DNA of 64,000 bases from Actinomycetota bacterium (GTDB lineage: Bacteria > Actinomycetota > UBA4738 > HRBIN12). Of the stretch, positions 2 to 46,502 are shown piece after piece; position 1 is the stretch's first letter; every line of letters begins with the position of its first letter. The translations under genes and the position numbers were made by a program. Below the pieces are notes generated by a model. That model did not search any database. It was not told the origin of the DNA and was given only the letters and a program-made list of their open reading frames with translations. Where the stretch lies: NCBI GenBank assembly GCA_035762085.1, contig DASTPT010000094.1, forward strand, positions 6,101 through 70,100, read 5' to 3'.

Positions 2-808
2 GTGGTGACCCCGATGGAGCCGGACGAGCTGCTGTTCCCCGGCACGAGCCCAGACGATCTGAGCCGTCGACTCGGGCGGCTCCGCGTGTTCAACCTCGTG
101 ATGGCCCTGTTCCACGCGGGCCAGGGCGTCGCGATCCTCGCGCTCGCGACGAGCTTCGCGATCCCGGTCGTCGTGCACACCCTGACGGGCCCCCCGGGCT
201 CGCCGTCCGAGACCGTCACGCTCTTCGACCTGAACATCGGGTGGGCGGTCGCCGCGTTCCTGTTCGTCTCGGCGATCGCGCACCTGCTGATCGCCTCACC
301 CGGGGTGTTCTCGCGGTACGAGCGGATGCTCCTGATGGGCAGGAACGACTACCGCTGGGTCGAGTACTCGATCAGTGCCTCGATCATGGCGGTGCTGATC
401 GCGATGCTCCCCGGCATCACGGACGCCGCCGCGCTCATCGCGATCTTCGGCGTGAACGCCGCGATGATCTTCTTCGGCCTCCTCCAGGAGCGCTACGAGC
501 GACCCGGCGGGCGCATGTTGCCGTTCTGGCTCGGCAGCCTGGTCGGCATCTTCCCGTGGGTCGCGATCGGCGTGTACATGTCGGGCGTCGGGACGGACGT
601 GCAGGTCCCGGGGTTCGTGTACGGGATCTTCTTCTCGCTGTTCGCGTTCTTCATGTCGTTCGCCGTGAACCAGTGGCTGCAGTACCGGCGCATCGGACCG
701 TGGAGGGACTACCTCTTCGGCGAGAGGGTGTATGTGATCCTCAGCCTGGTCGCGAAGTCCGCGCTCGCGTGGCAGGTGTTCGCCGGCACGTTGGCCGACA
801 CCGCCTGA
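2..808 (+). CDS. heliorhodopsin (7-TM retinal protein, inverted topology family)
   Basis: Translation aligns along its whole length with characterised heliorhodopsin 48C12 as I recall it: FNLVMALFHAGQGVAILAL, RWVEYSISASIMAVLIAM, IFGVNAAMIFFGLLQE, GERVYVILSLVAKSALAWQVF with the retinal Schiff-base Lys in TM7. About 7 hydrophobic segments. The true start may be the ATG at 14. Confidence 0.85.
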   Translation: MVTPMEPDELLFPGTSPDDLSRRLGRLRVFNLVMALFHAGQGVAILALATSFAIPVVVHTLTGPPGSPSETVTLFDLNIGWAVAAFLFVSAIAHLLIASPGVFSRYERMLLMGRNDYRWVEYSISASIMAVLIAMLPGITDAAALIAIFGVNAAMIFFGLLQERYERPGGRMLPFWLGSLVGIFPWVAIGVYMSGVGTDVQVPGFVYGIFFSLFAFFMSFAVNQWLQYRRIGPWRDYLFGERVYVILSLVAKSALAWQVFAGTLADTA

Positions 809-999
809 CGCCCACAGGACCCGGCCGAGGGGCGTGCGCCCCATCAGCGTGTCGAGGTACGCGAGGCGAGCGCCCGTGGCCGGCGCGGTGACCTCGAGCC
901 GGACCGACATGGCTCCGTCCTCCGTTCGGATCCCTGGTGCACCGTCACGTTCCGACCGCGGAGGCGCGAGGGCCGTAGGGGCCGGGCCGCTCGGGGCGC

Positions 1000-2820
1000 T
1001 CAGCGCGTCGCGCGCACGTTGCCGAGCCAGCTCTCGTACAGCCGCGCGTAGACGCCGCCGCTCGCGACCAGGTCGGCGTGCGTGCCTCGCTCAACGATCC
1101 GACCGGCGTCGAACACGAAGATCTCGTCGGCCGCCTCCGCGGTCGACAGCCGGTGCGCGATCGTGATCGTCGTCCGCCCGGCCGAGAGCCGTCGCAACGC
1201 CTCTGAGATCCGGCGCTCGGTCGCCGGGTCGACGGCGCTCGTCGCCTCGTCCAGGATGAGCACGCCGGGGCCGCCGATCTGCGCCCGAGCGAGCGACACG
1301 AGCTGCCGTTCGCCGACCGAGAGCGCGTCCCCGCGCTCCCCCACCCGGGTGTCCAGGCCCGCCGGCAGGGTCCGGACCCACGGGCCCAGCCCCAGCTCCT
1401 CGAACGCCGCCTCGACGTCTCGGTCGGTCGCGCCCTCACGGCCGGCGGCGACGTTCTCGCGCACGGTCATGTCGAACAGGAACCCGTCCTGCGGAACCAT
1501 GCGGATCGAGCGGTGCCGCGCATCGGCCGAGACCTCGCGCAGGTCCACCCCGTCGACCGACACGCGGCCCGACGCCGGGTCGGCGAGCCGGGTGAGCAGC
1601 TTCGCGAACGTCGTCTTGCCCGAGCCGGTCTCGCCGACGACCGCGACGTGCGCGCCGGCGGCGACCTGTGCGCTCACGCCGTGGAGCACCGGCGCGCCGT
1701 CCTCGTAGGCGTAGCGGACGTCCTCGGCCCCGACGCCCAGGGCGCCGTGCGGCAGGTCCACGCCGGGCGAGGGCTCCACGATCTCGACGGGCTTGTCGAG
1801 CAGCGCGAGGATCTTCCGCCAGCCGGCGATCGCGGTCTGCGTCTCGCTGTAGATCTCGGGCAGGTCGGCGAACGGGTGCAGGAACAGGTCGGCCAGGAAC
1901 AGGAACGCCGAGACCTGCCCGAACGTGAGCCCCCACCTAGGCCCGAACGTCGCGCCCACGACGACGACCACCGCGAGCGAGACCCCCCAGAACAGCGTCG
2001 TCATCGGGAACAGGATCGCGGTGCGAAGGTGCGCGTGGACCTGCGCGCGGTACCGCGCCTCGACCGAGCGCTTCACGCGTGAGTCGATCCGCTCCTCGAG
2101 GCCGTAGGCGCGGACGACCGCCGCGCCCATCACGCTCTCGCTCACCTCGGAGAGCATCTGCCCGACCCGCACCCGCACCAGGTCGTACGCGGCCGAGAGC
2201 GAGACCTGGAGCTTGCCCATCACGAACAGCAGCGGGCCGACGAGCAGGACCACCGGGATCGTGAGCCGCCACGAGTACGCGAGCATGAGCGCGAGCGCGC
2301 CGGCGACCTGGGCGATCGAGATGATCCACGCGATCCCGCCCCACTCGGTGAACTGCGACAGCGTGTCGACGTCGGCCGTGACCCTTCCGACGAACACGCC
2401 GCGCTTCTCGGTGGACTGCACCGCGGTCGAGAGCCCGTGGATGTGCTCGAACGTGCGGACCCGGAGGACCTTCAGCGCCTCCTCCGAGGCGCGGACCAGC
2501 CGCCGGGCGGCCGTCCGGCCCGCCAGGTACGTCACGGCGACCAGCACGAACGACGCCGTGCACACGCCGAGGACGAAGTCCGTGCGGAGCCGGCCGTCTT
2601 CGAACCCGTGGTCGAAGACCTGCTGGATCAGGATCGGCGCGACGAGCGCGGATGCCGTCGCCGCGAGCGAGACGACCACGGTGAGCGCGAGGCCACGGCG
2701 GAGCTCGGGGCTCTCCCGCAGGCCTCGGCGCAGCACGCCCCACGCGCTCCGAAGGTTCTCCGGGACCGGGAGCTCGTCCGCCGGGGCGACGACCTCGGCC
2801 TCGGCGGTTGCGGCGCTCAT
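1000..2820 (-). CDS. ABC transporter, fused permease/ATP-binding subunit (exporter type, MdlB/CydC-like)
   Basis: 606 aa. N-terminal 6-TM domain, C-terminal Walker A (GETGSGKTT), ABC signature (LSVGERQ) and Walker B (ILDEAT). Overlaps the upstream partner by 4 nt. Confidence 0.9.
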   Translation of the reverse strand: MSAATAEAEVVAPADELPVPENLRSAWGVLRRGLRESPELRRGLALTVVVSLAATASALVAPILIQQVFDHGFEDGRLRTDFVLGVCTASFVLVAVTYLAGRTAARRLVRASEEALKVLRVRTFEHIHGLSTAVQSTEKRGVFVGRVTADVDTLSQFTEWGGIAWIISIAQVAGALALMLAYSWRLTIPVVLLVGPLLFVMGKLQVSLSAAYDLVRVRVGQMLSEVSESVMGAAVVRAYGLEERIDSRVKRSVEARYRAQVHAHLRTAILFPMTTLFWGVSLAVVVVVGATFGPRWGLTFGQVSAFLFLADLFLHPFADLPEIYSETQTAIAGWRKILALLDKPVEIVEPSPGVDLPHGALGVGAEDVRYAYEDGAPVLHGVSAQVAAGAHVAVVGETGSGKTTFAKLLTRLADPASGRVSVDGVDLREVSADARHRSIRMVPQDGFLFDMTVRENVAAGREGATDRDVEAAFEELGLGPWVRTLPAGLDTRVGERGDALSVGERQLVSLARAQIGGPGVLILDEATSAVDPATERRISEALRRLSAGRTTITIAHRLSTAEAADEIFVFDAGRIVERGTHADLVASGGVYARLYESWLGNVRATR

Positions 2821-4592
2821 CGCTCGCCTCGCTCGTACGCGTGCACCATCGCGGCGTACCCCGGCTGCGACGCCATGAGCTCCTCGTGCGAGCCCGAGGC
2901 GAGCAGCCGGCCGCCCTCCAGGTACAGGACGCGGTCAGCCAGTCGGATCGTCGAGAGGCGATACGCGACCACGATCAGCGTGGCGTCGTGCTCCTCGCGG
3001 ATGCCCGCCAGGATCCGCGCCTCGATCGTGGGGTCGACCGCGCTCGTGGCGTCGTCGAGGATCAGCAGCCGCGGCCGGCGGACGATCGCCCGGGCGAGCG
3101 CCACCCGCTGCCGCTCCCCGCCCGACAGCGTCGCCCCGCGCTCGCCGAGCACGGTGTCGTAGCCCTCGGGCAGCGCTCGGACGAAACGGTCCGCCTGCGC
3201 GATCCGGGCGGCGCGCTCGATCTCCTCCCGCGAGACCGCCTCGTCGAGCGCGATGTTCTCGGCGACCGTCGTCGCGAACAGGAACGACTCCTGGAACACG
3301 AGCATCGCGGCGCCTCGGAGCGACCGCGCCTCGGCGTGACGCAGGTCCACGCCGCCCAGCAGCACCCGGCCGTCCGTCGGGTCGTCCAGCCGCAGGAGGA
3401 GCTGCGCGAGCGTCGACTTGCCCACGCCGGTCGGCCCCACGAGCGCGATCGACTCGTTCTGCCGGACGCGGAACGAGACGTCCTCGAGCACGCGGGTCCC
3501 GTCGAGCGCGTGCCCGAGATCCTCCACGCGCAGATCGAGCGGGCCGTCCGGGATCGGCACCGGTCGCTCCGAGACGCGGATCGTGGTCGGCTCCTCGAGC
3601 ACGGCGACGATCCGGTCGTGTCCGACGATCGCGCGGGGCAGCTCGGACAGGATCCACCCGACGAACCGCATCGGCCAGGCCAGGAGCCCGAAGAGCGTCA
3701 CGACCTGGACGAGGTCGCCGATCGACATCGCGCCGACCGAGATCCGCCAGGATCCTACGGCCATCAGGACGGTGATCGCGATCGCCGGCAGCGCCTCGAG
3801 CGCCGGCTCGAACCCCGCGCGGATCAGGCCGCCCTCGACCCGCGCGCGACGGAGCTCCTCGGCCTTCGCGGCCAACCGCTCGGTCTCGGCGCGCTCGCGG
3901 CCGAGCGTCTTCACGACGAGCGCGCCGTCCACCGACTCGTGCGCGACGGACGAGACCTCGCCGATCCGCTCCTGCGCCCGCTGCGCCGGCCCCTGCATCC
4001 GCGCGGCGAACGTGCGGTTCAGCACCCCGAGCGTCGGGAACAGCAGGAACCCGATCAGCGCAAGGAGCGGGTCGATCAGGAGCATCGCGACCATCGCGAA
4101 CACCACGAGCAGGATCACGCCGACCGCGAACGGGACCGGGTACAGCACGTCGACCGCGGCCTCGACGTCGGCCTCCATGTGTGCGAGGAGCTCTCCCGTC
4201 GGCTTCGCGCGGTGGTACGCGAGCGACAGGTCCCGGTAGCGATCCGAGACCCGGCGCCGGAGCGTCGCCGCCACCGCCGACCCCAGCACGCCGCTGAAGT
4301 AGCGGCGGACGCCGATCCCGAGCGCCCGGATCATCGCGAGCCCGACGATCGCGGCGGCACCGAGCCAGATCGTGCTCGTCGAGACGCCGGTCGAGAACGC
4401 CGGCCGCAGGACCTCGTCGGTGACCCGGCCGAGCGCGGCCGTCACCGCGATCGAGCCCGCGGCGAACACCGCCGCCCCCATGACCGAGATCACGAACGGC
4501 TTCGGATGGGCGCGGACGTACGAGGCGATGAGACGGAGCCCGCGCGCGAACAGCCCTCGATCTCGCGCCTCGGGCAGGGTCGCCGCGCTCAC
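2817..4592 (-). CDS. ABC transporter, fused permease/ATP-binding subunit (partner of 1000..2820)
   Basis: GPTGVGKST Walker A, LSGGERQR signature, LILDDATSAVD Walker B, N-terminal TM domain. The track ORF runs to 4925, but the Arg-rich N-terminal 111 aa overlap the cupin gene. The likely start is the GTG at 4592 (VSAATLPEARDRG...), which overlaps the cupin stop by 4 nt. Confidence 0.85.
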   Translation of the reverse strand: MSAATLPEARDRGLFARGLRLIASYVRAHPKPFVISVMGAAVFAAGSIAVTAALGRVTDEVLRPAFSTGVSTSTIWLGAAAIVGLAMIRALGIGVRRYFSGVLGSAVAATLRRRVSDRYRDLSLAYHRAKPTGELLAHMEADVEAAVDVLYPVPFAVGVILLVVFAMVAMLLIDPLLALIGFLLFPTLGVLNRTFAARMQGPAQRAQERIGEVSSVAHESVDGALVVKTLGRERAETERLAAKAEELRRARVEGGLIRAGFEPALEALPAIAITVLMAVGSWRISVGAMSIGDLVQVVTLFGLLAWPMRFVGWILSELPRAIVGHDRIVAVLEEPTTIRVSERPVPIPDGPLDLRVEDLGHALDGTRVLEDVSFRVRQNESIALVGPTGVGKSTLAQLLLRLDDPTDGRVLLGGVDLRHAEARSLRGAAMLVFQESFLFATTVAENIALDEAVSREEIERAARIAQADRFVRALPEGYDTVLGERGATLSGGERQRVALARAIVRRPRLLILDDATSAVDPTIEARILAGIREEHDATLIVVAYRLSTIRLADRVLYLEGGRLLASGSHEELMASQPGYAAMVHAYERGER

Positions 4593-4993
4593 CCCTCGAG
4601 GGTCTCCCCGAAGGTCTCCGCGTACTCCTCGTCGGTGACCGGCGGCCCCCACTCGGCGTCGCCACCACCGTTCACGGCGACGTGGACGAGCGGCGCGTCG
4701 GGTGTCGCGCCGTGGAAGTGCCACTCGCCCGGCTCGACGTGGATCACGTCGCCCGGCTGGAGCGTCCGCCCGACCTCGCCGCCCGAGCGCACCCGCCCCC
4801 GGCCGGCGACGGCGTACAGGAACTGACCGCCGGGGTGCCGGTGCCAGTGCGTTCGAGCGCCGGGGGAGAAGTGCACCACGCCGACGTTGTCTCCGTCCCG
4901 GTCGGCCAGCGTGCTGCGGTGCCATACCTCGCCGGTGAACCTGGCCACGTCCCCGCGCTCGAACGTCCCCTCGCTCCCTGGCGACACCCGCAT
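4589..4993 (-). CDS. cupin domain protein
   Basis: 134 aa. Two His-containing cupin motifs (HWHRHPGGQ...G and PGEWHFHG), beta-rich composition. Confidence 0.7.
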   Translation of the reverse strand: MRVSPGSEGTFERGDVARFTGEVWHRSTLADRDGDNVGVVHFSPGARTHWHRHPGGQFLYAVAGRGRVRSGGEVGRTLQPGDVIHVEPGEWHFHGATPDAPLVHVAVNGGGDAEWGPPVTDEEYAETFGETLEG

Positions 4994-5201
4994 GGCACCC
5001 CTCCTCCGACGTCGAGCCGACGCTACCAGCCGGCGCCGGCGCCGGGGCGCGGCCTCGTGCTCACCGACTTCCGGCCTAGCCCGCGGCCGTCCCCGAACGC
5101 CCTACGGCAGTGGGGCGGCCGGGGAAAACCATCACGGTTGGGTAGCCCCGTCATGCCTGTTCCGGCTCGCGTTCCTCCCCCCAACGGCCGATACGGAAGT
5201 C

Positions 5202-5571: not shown

Positions 5572-6171
5572 TCACCGCTCGGGTCGTCCGCGTACGTGCC
5601 GGACGAACGTGCGGAACGGAATCAGCAGGAACAGCGCGATGGCCAGGTACAGGACGACCGCGGCCGTCGGCGCGACCACGCCGATCGCGATCGCGAGCGC
5701 GTAGACGGCCAGGCTCGGATCGAGCTTCGCCGTCACGGCGCGCACCCGTTCCTCGGGGCGGTCGCCGTGGATCAGACCCTCTGCGACCGCGTACCGCCAC
5801 AGGACGCTCAGCGTCGCGGAGATCGCGAGCAGGTTGACGCCGTAGATCGAGACGGCGACGCGCTCAGCGTCGAGGTCGTGCAGGTACGCGCCGATCATCC
5901 CCGTCGGGAACGGGAGGACCGACACGAAGAACAGGAAGAGGAGGTTCAATCGGAAGAACACGGAGTCGACCTCGGCGATGTGATCGGTGACGGCGGCGTG
6001 CGCCACCCACGCGGCGCCGATCGACGCGAAGCTCACGAGGTAGGCGAGGTACTCGGGCCACTGCTCCACGATCCCTTCCCACACAGACCCGCTCTCGAGC
6101 GCGGGGGGCGACAACTCCAGGACCAGGAGCGTGATCGCGATCGCGGCGACGCCGTCGCTGAACGCCTCCAT
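5572..6171 (-). CDS. TMEM175/DUF1211 family potassium channel-like membrane protein
   Basis: MEAFSDGVAAIAITLLVLE matches the RxxxFSD signature helix of DUF1211/TMEM175, followed by 5-6 further TM helices. The ATG at 6171 is the probable start; the track ORF continues to 6225. Confidence 0.75.
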   Translation of the reverse strand: MEAFSDGVAAIAITLLVLELSPPALESGSVWEGIVEQWPEYLAYLVSFASIGAAWVAHAAVTDHIAEVDSVFFRLNLLFLFFVSVLPFPTGMIGAYLHDLDAERVAVSIYGVNLLAISATLSVLWRYAVAEGLIHGDRPEERVRAVTAKLDPSLAVYALAIAIGVVAPTAAVVLYLAIALFLLIPFRTFVRHVRGRPER

Positions 6172-6252
6172 CCGACCCTTGCCGTACCGGTGACCGGTGC
6201 TGCGGTTGGCGGGACCCCCGCTCATCGGCGGAGCATAGACCGGGCGTCGGCG

Positions 6253-7242
6253 CTAGGCGAAGAACGGCGTGATGGCTTCGACGGCCCGCGCCAGACGCGC
6301 CGATCGGCTGCCCGTCACCTCGATCCACGGCAGCCCGCGCTCCTCGAGGACCTCCTCGAACCGTGCCGTCATGTGCGCGCGGGTCTCGTCGCCCAGGCGG
6401 ATGTCGTCGGGTTCCCATGGGACCCCGACGTGGTCGGTCAGCAGGTACAGCGAGTACGGGGCTCCGTGCGCCTCGACGGCCCGCCAGGTGGCGTCCGAGG
6501 TCGAGCCCAGATAGACCTCCTCCCACAGGGCGGTGGCCAGACTGTCCGTGTCGCAGAAGACGATCCCGGTCGGCGCCTCTCGCGCCATCCGGTCCTCGAG
6601 GGCGTTCTGCTCGAGCGCGATCCGCAGGAAGTCGCTCGGCAGCCACTGGTCGCCCGTGCCGATCGTGAACTTCTCCACGGTGTACTCGCGACCGTACTCG
6701 GGAACCCAGATCGTCTCGTACGCCGACGCGAGCTGGCGGGTCAGCGTGGTCGAGCCCGACGATTCGGCGCCCACGATGCACACCCGCCGCACGTAGTGGG
6801 CGCGGACCGGGGCGTCGATGTAGCGCCAGTACGCGGCGGGATCGGCCCGGATCTGCGTCCCCGAGACGTCGATGTAGCTCCGTCCTACGTACTCGTTCCG
6901 GCACGGTGAGCCCTGGAGCTCGGCGATCGCCGCGGCCCACGGCGCCCCGTAGGGCTCGGAGGTGAACACCGCGTCGATCCGCTCGCGTCCCACGCACTCC
7001 CACGCGTGGCGGGCCCATGCCTCGGAGTCGTCCTCGACCTCGATATCGGGGACCACGATCACCGATGCGTCCGGGTGGAGCTCCCGGAGCCACGAGGCGC
7101 GGAGGCGCGACGACGGGTCCTCCCCACGGCCGTCGACCACCATGACGGTCACCCGATCGGCCCTGGAGACCGCCGTGTCGATCAGGTACCGGTGCCCGCG
7201 GTGCGGCGGGTAGAACTTGCCCACCACGACACCGTGCGTCAT
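6253..7242 (-). CDS. NadR-like bifunctional NMN adenylyltransferase / ribosylnicotinamide kinase (no HTH domain)
   Basis: N-terminal HxGH nucleotidyltransferase motif (GKFYPPHRGHRYLI). C-terminal P-loop (IVGAESSGSTTL) kinase domain. The start MTHGVVVG at 7242 is preferred over the track start at 7305. Confidence 0.7.
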   Translation of the reverse strand: MTHGVVVGKFYPPHRGHRYLIDTAVSRADRVTVMVVDGRGEDPSSRLRASWLRELHPDASVIVVPDIEVEDDSEAWARHAWECVGRERIDAVFTSEPYGAPWAAAIAELQGSPCRNEYVGRSYIDVSGTQIRADPAAYWRYIDAPVRAHYVRRVCIVGAESSGSTTLTRQLASAYETIWVPEYGREYTVEKFTIGTGDQWLPSDFLRIALEQNALEDRMAREAPTGIVFCDTDSLATALWEEVYLGSTSDATWRAVEAHGAPYSLYLLTDHVGVPWEPDDIRLGDETRAHMTARFEEVLEERGLPWIEVTGSRSARLARAVEAITPFFA

Positions 7243-7346
7243 CCTCGGCCACTCCTCCCCCTGCAGATGTGCCGAACGGTAGAGGTCGAAGGTAGCGGCG
7301 TCCACCTAGCATCCCGGCAGCGAGCTCGAGCGAAAGGGGTGCCGCG

Positions 7347-9143
7347 ATGTCCGATCTCCCGTTCGAGGACCGGACCGACTTCGAGGACGCCGACCGAGGC
7401 TTCATCGCGAAGCTCGACCCGGGGGTCGTCACGGCGGACGACGGCCGCGTGGTATGGGACAACGACGCGTACGCGTTCCTGGCCGGGGACTGTCCCGAGA
7501 CGGCCAACCCGAGTCTGTGGCGCCAGGGGCAGCTCTGCGCGAAGCAGGGCCTGTACCAGGTCACCGAGGGCATCTACCAGGTCCGCGGTCTGGACCTGTC
7601 GAACATGACCCTGGTGGAGGGCGATCGCGGTGTCGTCGTCATCGATCCGCTCGTCTCCGCCGAGACGGCGGCGGCCGCCCTCGGGCTGTACCGAGAGCAC
7701 CGCGGCGACCGGCCGGTCACGGCGGTGATCTACACGCACTCGCACGTCGACCACTTCGGCGGGGTGGAGGGCGTCGTGACCGACGAGGTGCCGGTCGTCG
7801 CGCCGGAGGGTTTCATGGAGCACGCGGTCTCGGAGAACGTCTACGCCGGCCTCGCGATGAGTCGCCGGGCCCTGTACATGTACGGTGCGGTCCTCGAGAG
7901 GGGACCGGCGGGTCACATCGGTACCGGCCTCGGCATCACGAACTCGACCGGCTCGATCGGACTGATCCCGCCCACCCTGAGCGTCACCCACACCGGCCAG
8001 GAGGAAACCCTCGACGGCATCCGGATCTCGTTCCAGCTGACGCCGGGGACCGAGGCCCCCGCGGAGATGAACTTTCTGTTCTCGGAGCATCGCGCGCTCT
8101 GCATGGCGGAGAACGCGACCCACAACCTGCACAACATCCTGACGCTACGTGGCGCGCCCGTGCGCGACGCTCGCGTGTGGTCCCGCTACCTCCAGGAGGC
8201 GATCTTGCTGTTCGTCGACCGGGCCGACGTTGCCTTCGCCTCGCATCACTGGCCCACCTGGGGTCGCGAGCGCATCGTGACGTGGCTGTCCGAGCAGCGG
8301 GACCTGTACGCGTACCTGCACGACCAGACGCTGCGGCTCCTCAACGCCGGGTACACGGGGATCGAGATCGCCGAGATGATCCAGATGCCCCCAACGATCG
8401 AGAACGCGTGGCACGCCCGCGGCTACTACGGCTCGGTCAGCCACAACGTGAAGGCGATCTACCAGCGCTACATGGGCTGGTTCGACGGGCACCCGGCCTC
8501 ACTGTGGGAGCTCCCCCCGGAGGAGTCCGCGGCGCGCTACGTCGAGTGCCTCGGCGGCGTGGACGCCGTCGTCGAGCGAGCGCGCGCGTACGTGGACGCG
8601 GGCGACCTGCGGTTCGCCTCGCAGCTGCTGAAGCACGCGGTCTTCGCCGACCCGGACCACGCGGAGGCCAAGGAGCTCCTTGCCGCGACCTTCGAGCGAC
8701 TCGGTCACGGGTCCGAGAACGGCCCCTGGCGCAACTTCTTCCTGATGGGCGCGAGGGAGCTCCGTGAGGGCATCGTGCCGGTCCCGATCCAGGCCAACGT
8801 GGGGATGGTCGCCGCACTCTCCGTCGAGCAGCTGTTCGACTCGATCGCGATCCGCGTCGATGGCCCGAGGGCGTGGTCGGAGCACTTGACGATCGACTGG
8901 CACCTCACTGACCTGGGCGAGCACCACCGGATGACGCTGTCGAACGGGGTCCTCATCCACTACCCCGACCCAGGCGCGGGGGAGGTCGACCTGACGCTCA
9001 CGCTCACGAAGCCGCAGCTGCTGGGGATGCTTGCGAGCGGAAGCGCGGAGGGCGTCGTGCACGAGGGCGACCTCGGCGCCATCGGGCGACTGATATCGGT
9101 GCTCGAGGACCAGAACCCAGACTTCGCGATCGTCACGCCCTGA
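7347..9143 (+). CDS. MBL-fold alkyl/aryl-sulfatase (SdsA1/Bds1 type)
   Basis: 598 aa. Metallo-beta-lactamase HSHVDHFGG motif, then dimerisation region and C-terminal SCP2-like domain, the architecture of type III alkylsulfatases. Confidence 0.85.
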   Translation: MSDLPFEDRTDFEDADRGFIAKLDPGVVTADDGRVVWDNDAYAFLAGDCPETANPSLWRQGQLCAKQGLYQVTEGIYQVRGLDLSNMTLVEGDRGVVVIDPLVSAETAAAALGLYREHRGDRPVTAVIYTHSHVDHFGGVEGVVTDEVPVVAPEGFMEHAVSENVYAGLAMSRRALYMYGAVLERGPAGHIGTGLGITNSTGSIGLIPPTLSVTHTGQEETLDGIRISFQLTPGTEAPAEMNFLFSEHRALCMAENATHNLHNILTLRGAPVRDARVWSRYLQEAILLFVDRADVAFASHHWPTWGRERIVTWLSEQRDLYAYLHDQTLRLLNAGYTGIEIAEMIQMPPTIENAWHARGYYGSVSHNVKAIYQRYMGWFDGHPASLWELPPEESAARYVECLGGVDAVVERARAYVDAGDLRFASQLLKHAVFADPDHAEAKELLAATFERLGHGSENGPWRNFFLMGARELREGIVPVPIQANVGMVAALSVEQLFDSIAIRVDGPRAWSEHLTIDWHLTDLGEHHRMTLSNGVLIHYPDPGAGEVDLTLTLTKPQLLGMLASGSAEGVVHEGDLGAIGRLISVLEDQNPDFAIVTP

Positions 9144-26282: not shown

Positions 26283-26375
26283 CGCCCCTCCCCGTTCCTG
26301 CGCGGTCGGCTGCGCGCCGGCCGGCGCGAGCCTACACTCCGCCCCTGATCGCCGTTCGAGATGGGAGATCCGCGC

Positions 26376-27554
26376 ATGGACATCCGGCTGACCCCCGAGG
26401 ACGCAGGGCTGCAGGCGCGCGCCCGCGACTTCTGCGAGCAGGTGCTGATGCCGCTCGAGGACGAGTGCGAGGAGCGCGACGGCCTCACGCCCGAGAGCCT
26501 CGGGCGAGCCAGGGCCCAGGTGCTCGACCACGGCTTCGCGGCGATCAACCACGCGGTCGAGGACGGCGGGCAGGGACTCGACGTCTTCCAGCAGGTGCTC
26601 GTCGAAGAGGAGTGGGGCAAGGCGACCGGGGCCCTGTGGGACATCCCGTGGCGGCCCTCGATCCCGCTCGCGGTCGCGACCGAGGCGCAGAAGGACGAGT
26701 ACCTGCGGCCCGCGTGCCGCGGCGAGCGCCGCGACTGCTACGCGATCACCGAGGAGGGTGCCGGTTCCGACCCGTCGATGGTGCGCACGACGGCCGTCCG
26801 CGACGGCGACGGCTGGGTGCTGAACGGCACGAAGTGGCACGTGACCTCGGGCGACGTCGCCGACTTCCTCCTGGTCCACGCGCACGTGGACGGCGCCCCG
26901 GCGAAGGCAACGGTGTTCATCGTGGACAAGGACCTGCCCGGCGTGCGCGTGGTCCGCACGCCGAAGTACATGCACACGTTCGTGTTCGAGCACCCGATCA
27001 TCGCGCTCGAGGACGTCCGCGTCGGCCCGGACAAGGTCCTCGGCGAGGTCGGGCAGGGGTACGAGCTCACGAAGGACTGGTTCGTCGAGGAGCGGATCAT
27101 GATCGGCGCGCGGACGGTCGGGGCGGCGACCCGCGCGCTCGACCTCTCGCTCGCGTTCGCGTCGGAGCGGGTGCAGTTCGGCGTACCGATCGTCGAGCAC
27201 CAGGCGATCGCGTTCATGCTCGCCGACATGGCCGCCGAGCTCATGACCTCCAAGGCGATGCTCTACCGCGTCGCCTGGCAAGCCTCCCGCGGCGGTACGC
27301 CGCGCAAGGAGGTCCACGCCCTCGCGAGCGCCGTCAAGCTCGTGTGCCCGGAGACCGCGGGCCGGATCGTCGACAGGGCCGTTCAGATCCACGGCGGCCG
27401 TGGCTACATGCGCGAGCAGCCGGTCGAGCGCCTGTACCGGGAGCTTCGCGTGGACCGGATCTGGGAGGGCACCTCCGAGATCCAGCGCATGGTCGTCGCC
27501 AACGAGCTGCGGAAACGCGGCGCCGGCGCCTATACGGGCTGGCCCGGCGCGTAG
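26376..27554 (+). CDS. acyl-CoA dehydrogenase family protein (paralog 1)
   Basis: ACAD motifs CYAITEEGAGSD, LNGTKWHVTS, and C-terminal YRELRVDRIWEGTSEIQR. About 45% identical to the 40142..41320 gene. Confidence 0.85.
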   Translation: MDIRLTPEDAGLQARARDFCEQVLMPLEDECEERDGLTPESLGRARAQVLDHGFAAINHAVEDGGQGLDVFQQVLVEEEWGKATGALWDIPWRPSIPLAVATEAQKDEYLRPACRGERRDCYAITEEGAGSDPSMVRTTAVRDGDGWVLNGTKWHVTSGDVADFLLVHAHVDGAPAKATVFIVDKDLPGVRVVRTPKYMHTFVFEHPIIALEDVRVGPDKVLGEVGQGYELTKDWFVEERIMIGARTVGAATRALDLSLAFASERVQFGVPIVEHQAIAFMLADMAAELMTSKAMLYRVAWQASRGGTPRKEVHALASAVKLVCPETAGRIVDRAVQIHGGRGYMREQPVERLYRELRVDRIWEGTSEIQRMVVANELRKRGAGAYTGWPGA

Positions 27555-32273: not shown

Positions 32274-32336
32274 CGCGCGATGCCGCGGGGGGCTTATCAC
32301 GCGTGGCCCACCCTCCTACACTCCCGCTCCGTGGAG

Positions 32337-35110
32337 ATGCGCAAGACGGTCTCGGTGCTGTTCGCCGATGTCACGGGCTCGACCTCCCTGGGCGAGCAGC
32401 TCGATCCCGAGTCCCTGCGCGCCGTGATGTCTCGCTACTTCGATGAGATGCGCCTGGTGATCGAGCGCCACGGCGGAACCGTCGAGAAGTTCATCGGCGA
32501 TGCGGTGATGGCGGTCTTCGGCGTGCCCGTCCTCCACGAGGACGACGCGCTCCGGGCGGTCAGGGCGGCGTGGGAGATGCGTGAGGCCCTCGCAGGGCTC
32601 AACGTCGAGCTCGGACGCGAGTGGGGCGCCACGCTGCGGATCAGGACGGGCGTGAACACCGGCGAGGTGGTGGCGGGAGACCCGGCGCGTTCCGAGACCC
32701 TCGTGAGCGGCGACGCGGTCAATGTTGCGGCTCGGTTCGAGCAGGCCGCGGAGCCCGGCGAGATCCTGATCGGGGAGGAGACCCATCGGCTCGTCCGCGA
32801 CGAGGTCACGGTCGAAGCCGTGGGGCCCTCGAGCTGAAGGGGAAGACGTCGGCCGTGTCCGCCTTCCGCGTGGTGGACGTGACCCGTGGAGCCCCCGGGC
32901 TCGCCCGGAGGCTCGACTCACCCCTGGTGGGCAGAGCGGAGGAGCTCGAGCGGCTCCGGCACGCCCTCGCCGATGCCGTGGCGCGCAGCACATGCCGCCT
33001 GGTGACGGTGGTCGGCGACGCCGGGATCGGCAAGACACGGCTGGTCGGCGAACTCGTCTCGACCGTCGACGGCGCCACGCGCACGCTGCGCGGGCGCTGC
33101 CTCCCGTACGGAGAGGGGATCACGTTCTGGCCGATCGCAGAGATCGTCAGGGAGGCGGCGGGCATCTTCGAGACGGACCCTCCCGACGTCGCAGGGTCGC
33201 GGATCCGGGACATCGTCGTCCAGAGCCGCGAGGAGGCTCTGGACGACATCGTGGATCCGGTCCTCGCGATCGCCGGAGCGGCCGAGGGCGCCGGCGATCT
33301 GCAGCAGACCTTCTGGGCCGTCCGACGGTTCCTCGAGTCCCTGGCCGGCGGGGGCGCGCTCATCGTGATCGTCGAGGACATCCACTGGGCGGAGCCCACG
33401 CTCCTCGACCTGCTCCAGTACGTCGCGGGGTTCAGCCATGGCTACCCCCTGCTCCTGTTGTGCACGGCGCGACCGGAGATCCGCGAGCTCAGGCCCGAGC
33501 CGATCGACGGTGCCGAGCTCGTGGTCCTTCAGCCGCTCAGCTAGCGCGAGAGCGACAGGTTGACCGCCAACCTGGGTCGGATCCCACCTCCAGACGCTGC
33601 TCCGGAAGGACCTGATCAGGCCGGACCGTTCCGGCTTCGCCGACGAGGATGCGTTCGCCTTCGGACACATCCTGATCCGCGACGCCGCGTACGGGTCGTT
33701 GGCCAAGCGCGAGCGGGCCGACCTGCACGAGCGGTTCGCGTCGTGGCTCGAGAACAAGGCCGGTGAACGGATCGCGGAGTTCGAGGAGATCGCCGGCTAT
33801 CACCTCGCGGAGGCGCACCGCTACCGCGCGGAGCTCGGTCCCATCGACGAGACCGCCAGGAGCGTCGCCGAGCGGGCGGCCGGGTACCTCTCGTCCGCGG
33901 GGCGGCGAGCCCTGGCTCGGTGGGACGTCGCCGCCGCCGCGAACCTCCTCTCGAGATCCGTCGAGCTCCTCCCGTCCCACGACGAGCGTCGCGTGTCGAT
34001 CCTGCCCGACCTCGGCCTCGCGCTCGCCCAGTTCGACCTCCACGCCGCCGACGAGGTGCTCGCCGAGGCCGTCGCGTCGGCCCATCGGATCGGTGCTCTC
34101 GGTATCGAGGGACGCGCCGCCGTACGACGCATCTTCGTGCGGCTGCACATCGACCCCGAGGAGGACCAACGAGCCTCGCTCGAGACGGCGGAGCGCTACG
34201 CGAGCCTGTTCGAGGCGCGGCGGGACGACCGGGGGGTCGCCGAGGCGAGGAATGCCGTCGGCACGATCCTCTTCTGGCAGGGCCAGATGAAGCTCGCCGC
34301 GGAGAGCCTCCAGCTGGCGGTGGACCACGCCCGGCGTGCCGGCGATCGTCGACAGGAGGCAGACAGTCTGCGCTGGCTCGCGCTCGTGATCCTGGAGGGC
34401 CCGACGCCCGTCGACGAAGGCCTGCGGCGCCTCGCGGACGTCCTCGATCGCCATCGCGGCGATCGACGGGTCCGGATCGACGTCGATCGGGTGCGAGCCC
34501 AGCTCGAGGCGATGCGAGGACGATCGGGGGAGGCCAGGCGTCTGATCGCCCGTGTCGAACACCTGGTCGGCGAGCTGAACGACCCCGTGACCCTCGGCGC
34601 AGTGCTCCGTCACGCCGGTCAGGTGGAGATGCTCGCCGGCGATGCCGAAGCGGCCGAGGCGGAGCTGCGCTCGGCGTACGACATCTACGACCGGCTGCGC
34701 GACACGGGACATCTGGCGAGCGTCGCACCGGATCTGGGCGACGCGTTGTACCGGCAGGGTCGGTTCGACGAGGCGTCGCACCTCGCGGAGGTGGGCGAAC
34801 GGAGCGTGACGCCCGGCGACCTCGATGCCGAGGTTCGGTGGCGGCAGCTCCGCGCCAAGCTCTGGGCCCGGACGGGTCGGGCCGAGGAGGGCGTGGCCCT
34901 CGCCGCGGACGCGGTCCGACTGGTTGCCGGCACGGAGTGCGACGACCTTCACGCCTCGCCCTCGTCGCGCTCGGGGAGACGCTCCGACTGGCCGGACACG
35001 GGTCGCAGGCCGAGACGTCGCTCCACGATGCGCTGTCCCTCTACCGGCGGAAGGGGAACGTGGCGGCCGCCACGAGGCTGATGGCGTCCATCGAGCGATC
35101 TGGATCCTGA
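32337..35110 (+). pseudogene. class III adenylate/guanylate cyclase - STAND/AAA ATPase - TPR regulator, disrupted by at least four frameshifts
   Basis: A continuous domain order is spread over abutting ORFs in different frames. Cyclase domain 32337..32837 (frame 0: VLFADVTGST, KFIGDAVMAVFG). P-loop NTPase 32821..33544 (frame 2: VVGDAGIGKTRL). Helical/TPR region 33564..about 34960 (frame 0). Tail to 35110 (frame 2). No start codons or RBS sit at the frame junctions. Confidence 0.65.
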
Positions 35111-35134: not shown

Positions 35135-37249
35135 TCAGGAACCGCGCGGGATCACGAGCGCGTCGACCGCAACGCACCCCTGTGGCCAGCAGACCACGGG
35201 GTTCGCGTCCAGCGCCTCGAGGTGATCGCCCAGCTCGTACGCGAGCCACGAGAGGCCGACGACCGCGCGGGCGAGCGCACCCACGTCCGCGGCCGGTGAG
35301 CCACGCACGCCGTCCAGCAGCGGGCGGATCCGGAGGCGTTCGATCATCCGGCGCGCCCGCACCTCGTCGAGGGGCGGGAGCGCGAGGCGCCGGTCGCGCA
35401 GGACCTCGACGAGCACGCCGCCGGCCGCGACGAGCACGAGCGGCCCGAACTCCGGATCGCGCACGATCCCGAGCGCGACCTCCACGCCCCTCGGCGCCAT
35501 CTTCGAGACCACGACCTCGGGACCGAGCAGCCGCTCGAGGTCCGAGTACGCGTCCTCGAGCGACGTCGAGTCGTCGATGCCGAGGCGCACCCCGCCGACG
35601 TCGGACTTGTGCTGCACCCCGGGGACCGCCGTCTTCACCGCCACGGCGAACCCCAGGCGCTGGGCCGCCGACATCGCGTCCTCGAGCGTCGCGGCCGCGA
35701 CGGCGTCCACCGTCGGAACCCCGTAGTCGGCCAAGAGCGCCAGCCCGTCGAGCTCGCCGAGCGGCACGCCGCTCGTCAGCCGCTCTCGCCATCGGACGCG
35801 TACGTCGTCCGACACGGGGGACGAGCCCCCGACCGGCGGCAGCGCCCGGTGGTCCCGGTGGTCGAACAGGTGCCGGAACGCGGCCAGGCCGGTCAGCGTC
35901 CCCTCGAGCGCCGGCGCGCCGGCCGCGTGGATCCTCGCCACGTCCGTGCGATCGATGCCGCCGGCGAAGTTGCTCAACATCGCCATCGGCTTGCCCGTCT
36001 CGGGCCACACGTCGAGGAAGCAGGAGAAATAGCCTTCCTCGTCGGCGTCGTCGGTCACCAGGTCGACCGCGAACGCGAGCGCCGCGACGTTCGGGTCCTG
36101 CACGAGCGCGCGGAGCGAGCCCGTGATCACCTCGCCGGCGTCGCGCCCGGTCCCCCAGAAGTCGAGCGGGTTGATCGGCAGCAGGCCCTCGTCGAGGAGC
36201 GCGTCGAGCTTCGCGGTGGCCTCGGGCCCGAGGGTCGCGAGCGGCACACCTACGGCCGCGGCCGCGTCGACCATCATCGCCCGCTCGCCGCCCGAGTCGT
36301 GGGCGGTCGCGAGCGCGCCCGGCCCCGCGCGACGTCCCGCGACGAACAGCGCGAGCGTGTCGGCCATCTCGTCGAGCGACTCGACGCGGTGCACCCCCTC
36401 GGCCTCGAACAGGGCCTCGTAGGCGCCGTCCTCACCCGCGAGCGCGCCGGAGTGCGCCGTCACCATCTCGCGCGTGAACGCCTCGCGTCCGACCTTCAGG
36501 ACCACGACCGGCACGTCGCGCTCGTGCGCCGAACGCATCGCGGCGCGGAAGCCGGCCGGGTCACGGACCGTCTCGATGAACAGTCCGATCGCCTCCGTGC
36601 TTTCCAGCCCGAGCGCGTACGCCATGTAGTCCGACGTCGTGGTCACGAACTCCTGTCCGGACGAGACGAGCAGGTTGAACCGCAGATCACGGTCGTTGTG
36701 CATGAACGCCGCGAATGCCGACCCCGAGTGGCTCACGAACGTGATGCCGCCGCTCGGCAGCTCGGCCGGCTCCTCCCACCCGGTCGCGCGCAGGCGGCGC
36801 TCCACGTTCACGAACCCCATGCAGTTGCCGCCGCAGATCGCCATGCCCGCCTCCCGCGCGACCTGGGCCAGGCGCTCGGTAAGGGGCGGCGCGTCGGGGC
36901 GGGGTTCCTCGAACCCGCTCGCGTAGATCACCGCCGAGCCGACCCCTGCGTCGGCGCACGCGCGCAGCGTCTCCTCGAGCTGAGCGTTCGCGAGCGCGAT
37001 CACCGCCAGGTCCACCGGCTCGGGCACCTCGTCGATCGAGCCGTAGCACCGGTGCCCCAACAACTCGTCGTACCGCGGGTTCACCGGGTATACCGGCCCC
37101 TCGAACCGCCCGAGCTCGACCAGCTCGCGCAGCGTCTCGTGGCCGACCGTGCCCTCCCGCCCACTCGCGCCGATGATCGCGACCGAACGCGCCTCGAGCA
37201 TCCGCTCGAGCGCGGATCGGCCGTGCGGGTCCGCCTGCGGTGCCGTCAC
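35135..37249 (-). CDS. acetyl-CoA synthetase (ADP-forming) / NDP-forming acyl-CoA synthetase, fused alpha-beta (paralog 1)
   Basis: 704 aa. N-terminal CoA-binding and succinyl-CoA-synthetase-like domains (SVAIIGASGREG, catalytic His region SHSGSAF) and a C-terminal ATP-grasp domain. Confidence 0.85.
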   Translation of the reverse strand: MTAPQADPHGRSALERMLEARSVAIIGASGREGTVGHETLRELVELGRFEGPVYPVNPRYDELLGHRCYGSIDEVPEPVDLAVIALANAQLEETLRACADAGVGSAVIYASGFEEPRPDAPPLTERLAQVAREAGMAICGGNCMGFVNVERRLRATGWEEPAELPSGGITFVSHSGSAFAAFMHNDRDLRFNLLVSSGQEFVTTTSDYMAYALGLESTEAIGLFIETVRDPAGFRAAMRSAHERDVPVVVLKVGREAFTREMVTAHSGALAGEDGAYEALFEAEGVHRVESLDEMADTLALFVAGRRAGPGALATAHDSGGERAMMVDAAAAVGVPLATLGPEATAKLDALLDEGLLPINPLDFWGTGRDAGEVITGSLRALVQDPNVAALAFAVDLVTDDADEEGYFSCFLDVWPETGKPMAMLSNFAGGIDRTDVARIHAAGAPALEGTLTGLAAFRHLFDHRDHRALPPVGGSSPVSDDVRVRWRERLTSGVPLGELDGLALLADYGVPTVDAVAAATLEDAMSAAQRLGFAVAVKTAVPGVQHKSDVGGVRLGIDDSTSLEDAYSDLERLLGPEVVVSKMAPRGVEVALGIVRDPEFGPLVLVAAGGVLVEVLRDRRLALPPLDEVRARRMIERLRIRPLLDGVRGSPAADVGALARAVVGLSWLAYELGDHLEALDANPVVCWPQGCVAVDALVIPRGS

Positions 37250-37259
37250 GTGCCCGAGG

Positions 37260-38879
37260 CTACTTCCTCTTCGGCAGGGCCTTGTCCTTCACGGCCATGC
37301 GGAACGCCTGCCAGCCGGGGATGCCGTTCACGCCGCCGCCTCCGTGCGTGGCGCACGAGCCGTGGTACAGCCCCCTGATCGGGGTGCGGAAGTCCGCGTA
37401 TCCGGGCGCCGGACGCATGTGGAACAGCTGGTCCACCGCGAGCTCGCCGTGGAAGATGTTCCCGCCGATCAGGCCGAGCTCCTGCTCCATCTCGTACGGC
37501 CCGATGATCTGCCGGTCGATGACGGCCGACTTGAAGTTCGGCGCGAGGGTGTTGTACTCCTCGATCGCGCGGTCGGCGTACGCCTCGAGCTCCTCGGTGT
37601 GCGGCTCGGCGCTCCACTCGTGCGGGCACCACTGGCTGTACATCGAGAAGATGTGGATCCCCTCGGGACACAGCTTCTTGTCGAGCGTCGTCGGGATGAC
37701 GCCGTCGACGAAGGGCCGCGTCGCCGCCTTCTTCTCCATGTGCGCGTCCTGGAACGCGCGCTCCGCGTAGTCCGTCGAGAAACACAGCTCGACCGACCCG
37801 GTGTGGTGGTCCTGCATCTCCTTGCCCGGATCGGCCGTGAAGTCCGGCAGCTCCGAGAGCGCGACGTTGATCTTCACGACGCCGGAGCGGCTCCGCCAGC
37901 GCTCGATGTCCCAGACGAAGTCGGCCGGCAGGTCGTACCGGTCGATGAGGTCGAGGAACGCGGTCCTCGGGTGGATCGCCGAAACGCCGATCGGCGCGCG
38001 CAGCTCCTCACCGTTCTCGAGCGCCACGCCGACGAACCGTCCGTTGCGCACGAGGATCTTCGAGACCTTCGCGTTCGTGCGGATCTCGCAGCCGAACGAC
38101 TCGGCCGATCGGCGGATCGAGTCCGACACGGCGCCCATGCCGCCCTGCTGGAACCCCCACGACCCGAGGTGGCCGTCGCCGACGTCGCCGATCGAGTGGT
38201 GGAGCATCACGTAGGCGGTGCCCGCCTCGTCCGGCCCGGCCCACGTCCCGATCACGCCGTTCACCGCGAGCATGCCCTTGATCGGGTCGGACTCGAACCA
38301 CTCGTCGAGCAGGTCGGTGACGCTCATCGTGAACAGCTTCGTGACGCTGCCCACGCCCCGGACACCGAGCTTGCGCATCTTCCATGCCGTCTCGACGGTC
38401 GACAGCAGGTCGCCGAGCGCCATCGAGCCCATCTTCGGCGGCACCCGCAGCAGCAGCGGCCCGAGGACGTCGGCGACGCCCTTCAGCCACTCCTCCCACT
38501 TCGGGAGTATCTCGGCGTCCTTCTTCGAGAACTGCGCGATCGACTCGTAGGACTTCGCGGCGTCGTCCGCGTAGACCTTGATCGAGCGCCCGTCCGGGAA
38601 CGCCTGGTAGTACGGCCCGAACGGCGTGACGTCGTAGCCGAACCGTTTGAGCTGCAGCTCGTTGATGATCGTCGGCGGCATCAGCGACATCACGTACGAG
38701 TAGGTCGTGACCTGAATCTCGGGGTGGTCGGGGAACGGCGCGCTGGTGTCGGCCGCGCCGCCGGTCTTGTGACGCGCCTCGAGCACGACGGCCCGGGCGC
38801 CGGCCCTCGCGAAGTAGGCGCCCGCCGTGAGCCCGTTGTGCCCGCCGCCGATGATGATCGCGTCGTAGACGTTCGTCAT
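37260..38879 (-). CDS. FAD-dependent oxidoreductase of the phytoene-desaturase / amine-oxidase superfamily (CrtI-like)
   Basis: 539 aa. N-terminal Rossmann motif YDAIIIGGGHNGLTAGAYFARAG...VLE, with the size and layout of COG1233 flavoproteins. Confidence 0.8.
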   Translation of the reverse strand: MTNVYDAIIIGGGHNGLTAGAYFARAGARAVVLEARHKTGGAADTSAPFPDHPEIQVTTYSYVMSLMPPTIINELQLKRFGYDVTPFGPYYQAFPDGRSIKVYADDAAKSYESIAQFSKKDAEILPKWEEWLKGVADVLGPLLLRVPPKMGSMALGDLLSTVETAWKMRKLGVRGVGSVTKLFTMSVTDLLDEWFESDPIKGMLAVNGVIGTWAGPDEAGTAYVMLHHSIGDVGDGHLGSWGFQQGGMGAVSDSIRRSAESFGCEIRTNAKVSKILVRNGRFVGVALENGEELRAPIGVSAIHPRTAFLDLIDRYDLPADFVWDIERWRSRSGVVKINVALSELPDFTADPGKEMQDHHTGSVELCFSTDYAERAFQDAHMEKKAATRPFVDGVIPTTLDKKLCPEGIHIFSMYSQWCPHEWSAEPHTEELEAYADRAIEEYNTLAPNFKSAVIDRQIIGPYEMEQELGLIGGNIFHGELAVDQLFHMRPAPGYADFRTPIRGLYHGSCATHGGGGVNGIPGWQAFRMAVKDKALPKRK

Positions 38880-38964
38880 GCTCGGATCTCCTTCGGGCCG
38901 TCTGCCGCGCCATCATGTCCCGCGTTTGAACGACGGGTCAAGCCGACCGTGGCCGATGCGCCGG

Positions 38965-41320: not shown

Positions 41321-41352
41321 CCGGCCACCTCCGGCGCGAGCATACGCCGGAG

Positions 41353-41368
41353 CTGAACGACGGTTCAG
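41353..41368. promoter_or_regulatory. perfect palindrome CTGAAC-GACG-GTTCAG upstream of the acyl-CoA dehydrogenase gene (operator-like)
   Basis: Read directly, in the 55-nt gap between the cysK-like stop and the ACAD start. It belongs to the TGAAC-N4-GTTCA motif family seen at 38926, 38995, 46361 and 50944. Confidence 0.45.
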
Positions 41369-41375
41369 ACGCGAC

Positions 41376-42440: not shown

Positions 42441-42544
42441 AGGGTCCTCCTCGCGAGGGCGACGTCTCGGCCCGTCCGTGCGGACGGGGGATCGCCGCCG
42501 TGCACGTGGTTCGTGCCCCGGCGGACGCGCCTCCAAACCCGCCG

Positions 42545-46322: not shown

Positions 46323-46502
46323 CCCTCCTCGGTCGGGCTGGGCCGCATCATACCCGTGGCTTGAACGACGCTTCAGGCCCCCCACCCGGCCACGGCGTGG
46401 ACGGCGCGACCGGACACGCCTTGGGTTGCGCCTGCCCGTGCTGAGTGCTATTCAACCTCTTCGTACGACCGTTCAAACGACGGCGGACCAAGGAGGGGAA
46501 GG

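Follow-up and report, generated by a model that had tools for sequence, protein, structure and literature searches.

An ordinary heliorhodopsin gene with variable neighbours in an Actinomycetota genome

The 64,000-nucleotide stretch of Actinomycetota DNA analysed here (the window) opens on a gene that was predicted, from the letters alone, to encode a heliorhodopsin (HeR). The questions raised by this locus are whether the gene belongs to that family, whether the missing retinal genes or the neighbouring genes set it apart from other members, and whether any neighbour can be named as the partner through which the protein acts. Heliorhodopsins are common in high-GC Actinomycetota and are named automatically by the NCBI pipeline. 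The gene proves to be an ordinary heliorhodopsin, which neither the absence of retinal genes nor the neighbourhood makes unusual. The gene and the two codons at the centre of its chromophore site are the following, the residues being placed by alignment (the lysine to the reference protein 48C12) and the codons read from the sequence.

2 to 808, plus strand: heliorhodopsin (HeR) gene, codons 8-275 and the stop codon
362 to 364, plus strand: GAG, codon of the counter-ion glutamate
755 to 757, plus strand: AAG, codon of the Schiff-base lysine

Family membership is observed directly. The Pfam Heliorhodopsin profile PF18761 matches over its whole length (1-242 of 242) with E = 5.8e-96 and 320.9 bits against a threshold of 26.7, and the NCBIfam equivalog NF038020 ('heliorhodopsin HeR') scores 308 bits (cut-off 100), again along the complete profile (1-244 of 244). 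The structure of 48C12, a heliorhodopsin from a freshwater actinobacterial fosmid (6su3/6su4/6uh3), is matched with E = 4.4e-76 (query 24-265 against chain 9-254) and that of the Thermoplasmatales protein TaHeR (6is6) with E = 2.4e-55. Global alignment with 48C12 gives 52.9% identity over 242 aligned residues, and the identity to the biochemically characterised OcHeR is 55.9-56.2%. On the strength of these matches, the reading frame at 2-808 on the plus strand is a heliorhodopsin, as originally predicted; chance resemblance is excluded, and no observation speaks against the assignment; since the identity to solved structures is 53%, the fold can be regarded as settled. The frame has a GC3 of 0.96-0.97, the value usual for genes of this window with its 71.6% GC, and it was therefore concluded that the frame is a genuine gene in the codon style of its host.

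The frame had been described as full-length, and this has to be corrected. The window opens inside the plus-strand reading frame, whose stop codon is the TGA at 806-808, and it covers 268 residues of the protein, among them the entire HeR domain. Two relatives that are 99-100% identical (P0001 and P0249) are 275 amino acids long and start with MSESLTK ahead of the VVTPM with which the window part begins. In a relative with 99% DNA identity (L083), the HeR ATG sits 20 nt before the first letter of the window; from this we infer that the true start is at that distance outside the window, whose edge cuts off seven N-terminal codons. The 268 residues match positions 8-275 of P0249 (GenBank HEU4528519.1) at 100% identity; that protein lies on a 103,507-nt contig and is titled 'MAG TPA: heliorhodopsin HeR [Actinomycetota bacterium]'. 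The protein is already correctly annotated in that public record. An exact-sequence look-up with the protein begun at an internal ATG returned no record, because the true start is upstream of the window.

The chromophore residues, too, were read directly from the protein. The TM7 motif SLVAKSALAWQ is identical in the window protein and 48C12. The Schiff-base lysine is K252 in the numbering of the window frame (K259 in the full-length protein) and aligns with K241 of 48C12, while the counter-ion glutamate is E121 (full-length E128) and aligns with E107; both positions are as the original prediction had them. The polar cluster H23, H80 and S237 of 48C12 corresponds to H38, H94 and S248 of the window frame, and the retinal pocket is kept in the same way (W105, Y108, N138, M141, F206 and Q213 of 48C12 being W119, Y122, N152, M155, F217 and Q224). 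By this alignment, all the hallmark residues of a heliorhodopsin are present: the Schiff-base lysine, the glutamate counter-ion, two histidines and a serine. The window protein thus shares with 48C12 its family, the Lys/Glu/His/His/Ser set and the pocket residues, but differs in having a longer N-terminal tail (the seven codons outside the window and about 15 residues more), one- and two-residue deletions in ICL2 and ECL3, and the replacements S112 to A and C166 to S.

Heliorhodopsins are distinguished by a cytoplasmic N-terminus, the reverse of type-1 rhodopsins. In a hydropathy scan, which is a crude method, overlapping stretches of the window protein merged into six hydrophobic blocks; the block at 126-169 (44 amino acids) is read as two helices from its alignment with 48C12, which brings the predicted number of transmembrane helices to seven. 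The distribution of charge was counted directly. Fifteen of the 18 lysines and arginines lie in the N-terminal tail and three alternate loops, the other three stand at helix ends beside those loops, and the remaining loops and the C-terminus have none. This distribution fits an inverted topology with the N-terminus inside; the method is crude, and the 53% identity to a solved structure lends the stronger support.

By analogy with characterised members of the family, the protein is probably a retinal-binding, non-pumping and slow-cycling photosensor, which acts on a partner protein and is supplied with retinal from elsewhere. It is a canonical seven-helix heliorhodopsin whose N-terminus faces the cytoplasm. 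All-trans retinal would be attached to K259 (window-frame K252) through a protonated Schiff base, which E128 and the His/His/Ser polar cluster would stabilise. Green absorption near 550 nm, a slow photocycle and no ion pumping would be expected from what is seen in 48C12, TaHeR, OcHeR, AbHeR and TfHeR. As a photosensor, the protein would alter the activity of a partner through contacts made by its positively charged cytoplasmic loops, and its retinal would have to be made by genes in another part of the genome or taken up from outside, the usual situation in HeR-only bacteria. Its retinal binding, absorption colour, lack of transport and signalling through contact with another protein are thus expectations carried over from relatives. 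The lack of pumping and the regulation of partners have been described for heliorhodopsins (PMC11109279, PMC9529153, PMC9769723). Some viral heliorhodopsins are reported to transport protons (PMC12873467), so the absence of transport is not universal in the family. Two members of the same family, AbHeR with glutamine synthetase (PMC9529153) and TfHeR with photolyase (PMC9769723), offer a parallel to the light-dependent binding to a partner enzyme that is presumed here. Pfam detected neither a glutamine synthetase nor a photolyase domain among the reading frames of the window.

The supply of retinal was considered next to these expectations, since the locus had been singled out for having no retinal-biosynthesis partner in view. 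The GC3-supported reading frames of the 64-kb window were searched with Pfam, and BCD/Blh, carotenoid cleavage oxygenase (RPE65), phytoene synthase (SQS_PSY), lycopene cyclase and polyprenyl synthase were all absent, in agreement with the claim that the window has no beta-carotene dioxygenase. The remaining gaps of the window, inspected as translated frames, held no credible additional gene. A CrtI-like frame at 37263-38912 on the minus strand was considered as a carotenoid enzyme and rejected, as it lies far below every NCBIfam cut-off for such enzymes (CrtO 240 bits against 1000; crtI_fam 80 against 238). Judged by these scores, the frame encodes a generic FAD oxidoreductase from the same superfamily. 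It overlaps the gene of an ADP-forming acyl-CoA synthetase and adjoins a TetR gene, and was rightly assigned to a different operon from the HeR gene.

The gap in retinal genes could be read as meaning that the HeR gene is a functionless relic, or encodes an apoprotein free of chromophore in an organism unable to make retinal. Such a reading draws on the absence of blh/BCD, CCD, crtE/B/I/Y and lycopene cyclase genes within the 64 kb, but it is most improbable. The frame is intact with host-like codon usage (GC3 0.97), every residue of the chromophore pocket is kept, and intact orthologs (82-99% identity) occur in many samples. In a survey of HeR-only genomes, a complete de novo retinal pathway was found in 1 of 381, about 55% of the genomes encoded a beta-carotene oxygenase, and heliorhodopsins were reported to capture exogenous retinal efficiently (Bulzu et al. 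2021, bioRxiv 10.1101/2021.02.01.429150). The missing genes are therefore unremarkable, because their absence is the norm for HeR-only genomes and because 64 kb covers little of a genome; the weight that had been placed on them is not borne out.

The neighbours of the HeR gene raise the second part of the question. They are arranged in the window as follows.

809 to 999 (191 nt), no strand: spacer between the convergent stop codons of HeR and ABC_A; the cupin-ABC indel has its left junction at ~812
1000 to 2820, minus strand: ABC_A, type-I ABC half-exporter (TMD and NBD, 606 aa; Pfam ABC_membrane and ABC_tran) with a canonical Walker B, LILDE
2817 to 4592, minus strand: ABC_B, type-I ABC half-exporter (591 aa, GTG start at 4592; Pfam) with a degenerate Walker B, LLILDD
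4589 to 4993, minus strand: Cupin_2 protein of 134 aa (Pfam Cupin_2, E = 4e-15)
5064 to 5201, plus strand: conserved leader upstream of ZnR2, found by alignment, which follows the HeR stop codon directly in L087 and L093
5202 to 5543, plus strand: ZnR2, a 113-aa orphan zinc-ribbon protein with the pattern CPxCG-26-CPxC (from motifs and homolog alignments)
5572 to 6225, minus strand: TMEM175-family K+ channel homologue (Pfam PF06736, E = 1.2e-27)

The description of these neighbours as a convergent ABC pair, a cupin, a zinc-ribbon protein and a TMEM175-like channel was accurate. Their proposed standing as candidate functional partners is weak, as they vary among relatives. The stop codon of the cupin gene overlaps the start of ABC_B (placed from its ortholog in L001), ABC_B and ABC_A overlap by 4 nt, and the three genes are one minus-strand operon with the cupin first. 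The Walker B motifs are consistent with a predicted heterodimeric exporter having one non-canonical ATP site. HeR (plus strand) and the operon (minus strand) converge, with 191 nt between their stop codons, and a scan of this spacer found neither a consensus terminator nor an inverted repeat. Scans for promoters, terminators and inverted repeats around the HeR gene likewise gave nothing; such scans are uninformative in high-GC DNA.

The stability of this arrangement was assessed in 80 genome loci around HeR homologs, in one of which (L001) the HeR is 90% identical to that of the window, the others being 52-75% identical. An ABC operon lies beside HeR in L001 only. In L079, an ABC half-transporter pair was found 5 kb from HeR, and the other genome loci (HeR 52-75% identical) have single or partial ABC hits at most, none of them beside HeR. 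No gene family consistently adjoins HeR in the 80 loci, where epimerase/SDR, MerR-B12 and fasciclin genes are scattered. The idea that an adjacent ABC pair is a general feature of heliorhodopsin genes was rejected on this comparison.

Closer relatives were found to differ by clean insertions or deletions beside the HeR gene. In L087, L092 and L093, whose HeRs are 82%, 88% and 82% identical, the ZnR2 leader and coding sequence come directly after the HeR stop codon. When the window was aligned with L087 and L093 by blastn, the junctions fell at positions ~812 and ~5063, and on this ground the 4.25-kb cupin-ABC operon between them was recognised as an indel. In L090 (HeR 88% identical), the cupin is present and the place of the ABC genes is taken by an unrelated gene, whose 196-aa product has a hydrophobic, signal-peptide-like N-terminus. 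The TMEM175 homologue is missing from L001 and L087 and present in L090, and an alkyl sulfatase gene is likewise variably present among the close relatives. On these alignments, the HeR gene is at a rearrangement-prone junction.

A precedent exists for a heliorhodopsin that acts on an ABC exporter. OcHeR of Ornithinimicrobium cerasi binds the exporter OmrDE and raises drug export in the light, the increase for OmrDE being 1.8-2.8-fold and the genes lying in the order hp-omrD-omrE-helR in a single operon (Cho et al. 2024, PMC11109279). This published interaction, the most relevant precedent for the locus, had been passed over in the original prediction. In the O. cerasi locus (L086), helR is co-directional and begins 37 nt after omrE. 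O. pekingense was considered as a source of an OmrDE-like locus and rejected, as its HeR sits inside the nuo operon. The likeness between the two systems is that an actinobacterial HeR (about 56% identical) stands by the 3' end of a two-gene operon for a heterodimeric type-I ABC exporter, the first subunit of which has the degenerate ATP site in both. The systems differ in that the window HeR is convergent across a 191-nt spacer, whereas helR is co-directional across a 37-nt gap; the gene upstream of the ABC pair is a cupin in the window and an unrelated 200-aa protein in O. cerasi; and the adjacency in the window lineage is the product of a recent indel.

By analogy with this system, the window HeR might be a light-dependent regulator of the adjacent heterodimeric ABC_B/ABC_A exporter, a reading that is unlikely. 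The order in the precedent, with the degenerate-site subunit followed by the canonical subunit and then helR (PMC11109279), is echoed in the window by a type-I half-transporter heterodimer with LLILDD first and LILDE second and a 4-nt overlap, and the adjacency is kept in L001 at 90% HeR identity. Against it stands the convergent orientation, which leaves HeR without co-transcription with the ABC operon. The identity between ABC_A and OmrE is 34% and that between ABC_B and OmrD 35.5%, values within the 33-38% seen for an unrelated ABC pair (that of L079); ABC_B/ABC_A thus appear not to be orthologous to OmrDE, their identity being no better than that of unrelated pairs. The loop residues of OcHeR implicated in OmrDE binding (the ICL1 Arg triplet, D167, W170, W225, R229, R233 and R235) were compared and are only partly kept. 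W225, R229 and R235, as well as D236, are found in the window HeR, and of these R229, R235 and D236 are highly conserved across heliorhodopsins generally (PMC11109279), whereas D167 is deleted, W170 is M, R233 is P and R104, one of the three ICL1 arginines, is E. The cupin-ABC block (812-5063) is missing in L087, L092 and L093, L090 is without the ABC genes although the HeRs of these four loci are 82-88% identical, and an ABC half-transporter pair stands beside HeR in 0 of the 79 other genome loci. As a recent trait of this lineage alone, the adjacency speaks against a pairing that is functionally obligatory, though a newly recruited one would still be compatible with it. The zinc-ribbon proteins offer a different candidate, in that ZnR1 and ZnR2 might be cytoplasmic signal transducers of HeR, free-standing equivalents of the zinc-ribbon domain of archaeal Znf-HeR. 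ZnR1, a paralog 52% identical to ZnR2, lies just outside the window, 97 nt upstream of HeR and on the same strand (seen in L083, L084 and L001). The C-terminal helix of ZnR2, LTLDDLIELHFLLQD, is invariant, and its leader (5064-5201) is highly conserved with a predicted hairpin (z = -2.87); an Rfam scan of the whole window, this leader included, gave no match. No Pfam or NCBIfam model reaches its cut-off for these proteins, and zinc_ribbon_4 was rejected as their family for scoring below threshold.

The case for such transducers is that HeR has a same-strand ZnR gene at most 160 nt away in six loci, as ZnR1 upstream (L083, L084 and L001) or as ZnR2 downstream (L087, L092 and L093), and that ZnR genes are found on both sides of HeR in the window lineage, L001 and L090, while small frames with two CxxC motifs have a background of 0.46% in HeR loci. 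ZnR2 itself adjoins HeR in L087, L092 and L093 and is near it in L090. Within the narrow clade whose HeRs are at least 82% identical, a ZnR gene always adjoins HeR and is its most persistent neighbour. Fusions of a zinc ribbon to HeR have been reported in Thermoplasmatales (Bulzu et al. 2021, 10.1101/2021.02.01.429150), and there, too, a CxxC...CxxC zinc-ribbon module is physically associated with the HeR gene. The ribbon of the window clade, however, is a separate protein of 108-113 amino acids, whereas that of Znf-HeR is an N-terminal fusion; the cysteine pairs are 26 residues apart in ZnR and 17 in the fusions, with no detectable homology, and homology to zinc_ribbon_4 or any other Pfam family was not detected either. 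The full-length N-terminus of the HeR itself (P0249) has no cysteine before TM1. The association is limited to the one narrow clade, so shared ancestry alone explains it, and such a frame stands beside HeR in 0 of 80 other HeR loci. Among 80 metagenome loci with ZnR homologs, HeR was found only beside the closest ones (L090-L093). In L094 (ZnR 76% identical), there is no HeR on a 5.6-kb contig that extends 2.7 kb upstream and 2.5 kb downstream of ZnR, and L170, L171 and L172 (ZnR 54-61%) have none within 6 kb on each side, the first two having a nitroreductase neighbour. Since L172 keeps the ZnR-ThrC-IlvD-DAO synteny of the window without HeR, it was concluded that ZnR2 belongs to that block and that HeR is the variable element. 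A transducer role for the two ribbon proteins is hence quite improbable. The broader proposal that HeR signals through the flanking ZnR1 (97 nt upstream) or ZnR2 (ancestrally about 150 nt downstream), or else that the recently inserted cupin-ABC operon was recruited as a second, independently evolved exporter under HeR control, is also rather improbable.

Under the reading that is preferred, a photosensor of the usual heliorhodopsin kind, synteny names no partner, because no adjoining gene is reliably linked to HeR. The variation among neighbours argues against assigning partners to heliorhodopsins by simple guilt by association. The locus is a natural experiment, in which close relatives differ by clean indels beside the HeR gene, the ABC operon being present or absent, the cupin standing alone, or the zinc-ribbon gene directly adjoining HeR. 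These relatives provide matched gene sets for the question of whether the published interaction between a heliorhodopsin and an ABC exporter generalises. If either the zinc-ribbon reading or that of a recruited ABC exporter were true, it would give a new, genetically defined transducer for heliorhodopsins.

The segment beside the heliorhodopsin (HeR) gene was compared with the corresponding loci of relatives, namely L001, L087, L090 and L093, which carry HeR, and L094, a zinc-ribbon locus on a contig without it. The features concerned are as follows.

812-5063 (genes on the minus strand): operon of a cupin and the two ABC half-exporters ABC_B and ABC_A
5064-5201: leader of about 140 nt, upstream of the gene for the orphan Zn-ribbon protein ZnR2
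5572-6225: TMEM175-family channel gene
6253-7305: AAA_28 gene, next to the HeR region
7347-9143: alkyl sulfatase gene

Against L087 and L093, the whole cupin-ABC operon is a clean indel of 4.25 kb. In L090, the cupin is kept and the ABC pair is swapped for a different gene, encoding a 196-amino-acid protein with a signal-peptide-like N-terminus. These differences mark a rearrangement hot spot adjoining the HeR gene. The region has other small indels too: the TMEM175-family channel and alkyl sulfatase genes are both present in L090 but both missing from L001 and L087, where synteny is otherwise kept.

The ZnR2 leader is near-invariant in the alignment of six loci (the window, L001, L090, L087, L093 and L094), and its conservation exceeds that of the ZnR2 reading frame downstream. 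A stable hairpin is predicted within it (MFE z = −2.87); no compensatory changes were seen among the six aligned loci, and the leader has no counterpart in Rfam. It may function as an RNA leader or as an operator bound by a protein.

The synteny of the AAA_28 gene with ThrC is kept in L001, L087 and L090. Its product resembles the NMN adenylyltransferase/ribosylnicotinamide kinase portion of NadR, matching model TIGR01526 with 196 bits, under the cut-off of 341. A separate group of NAD+ synthetases has been described among HeR neighbors (PMC11109279).

In Ornithinimicrobium pekingense (L081 7347-9400, ATWJ01000001.1), a HeR gene lies between nuoC and nuoB on the opposite strand, within the nuo (NADH dehydrogenase) operon. 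The position is odd for an insertion and breaks up a normally contiguous operon.

Farther along the window, the following features were found.

26349-27551: second acyl-CoA dehydrogenase, further upstream of the acyl-CoA neighborhood
32274-35081: adenylate/guanylate cyclase-AAA_16-TPR regulator, split over three reading frames (3, 2, 3)
35138-38912 and 40145-46451: acyl-CoA metabolism neighborhood
35138-37288 and 43387-45480: two paralogous ADP-forming acyl-CoA synthetase genes
40145-41695: acyl-CoA dehydrogenase, the single copy inside the neighborhood

The L087 homolog of the regulator is intact (1164 amino acids); the split reflects either two frameshifts, making a pseudogene, or assembly errors. 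The neighborhood also holds an enoyl-CoA hydratase and a TetR regulator. The CrtI/CrtO-like flavoprotein gene is embedded among these genes, a setting that points to a function in the metabolism of acyl compounds or organic acids and not in that of carotenoids.
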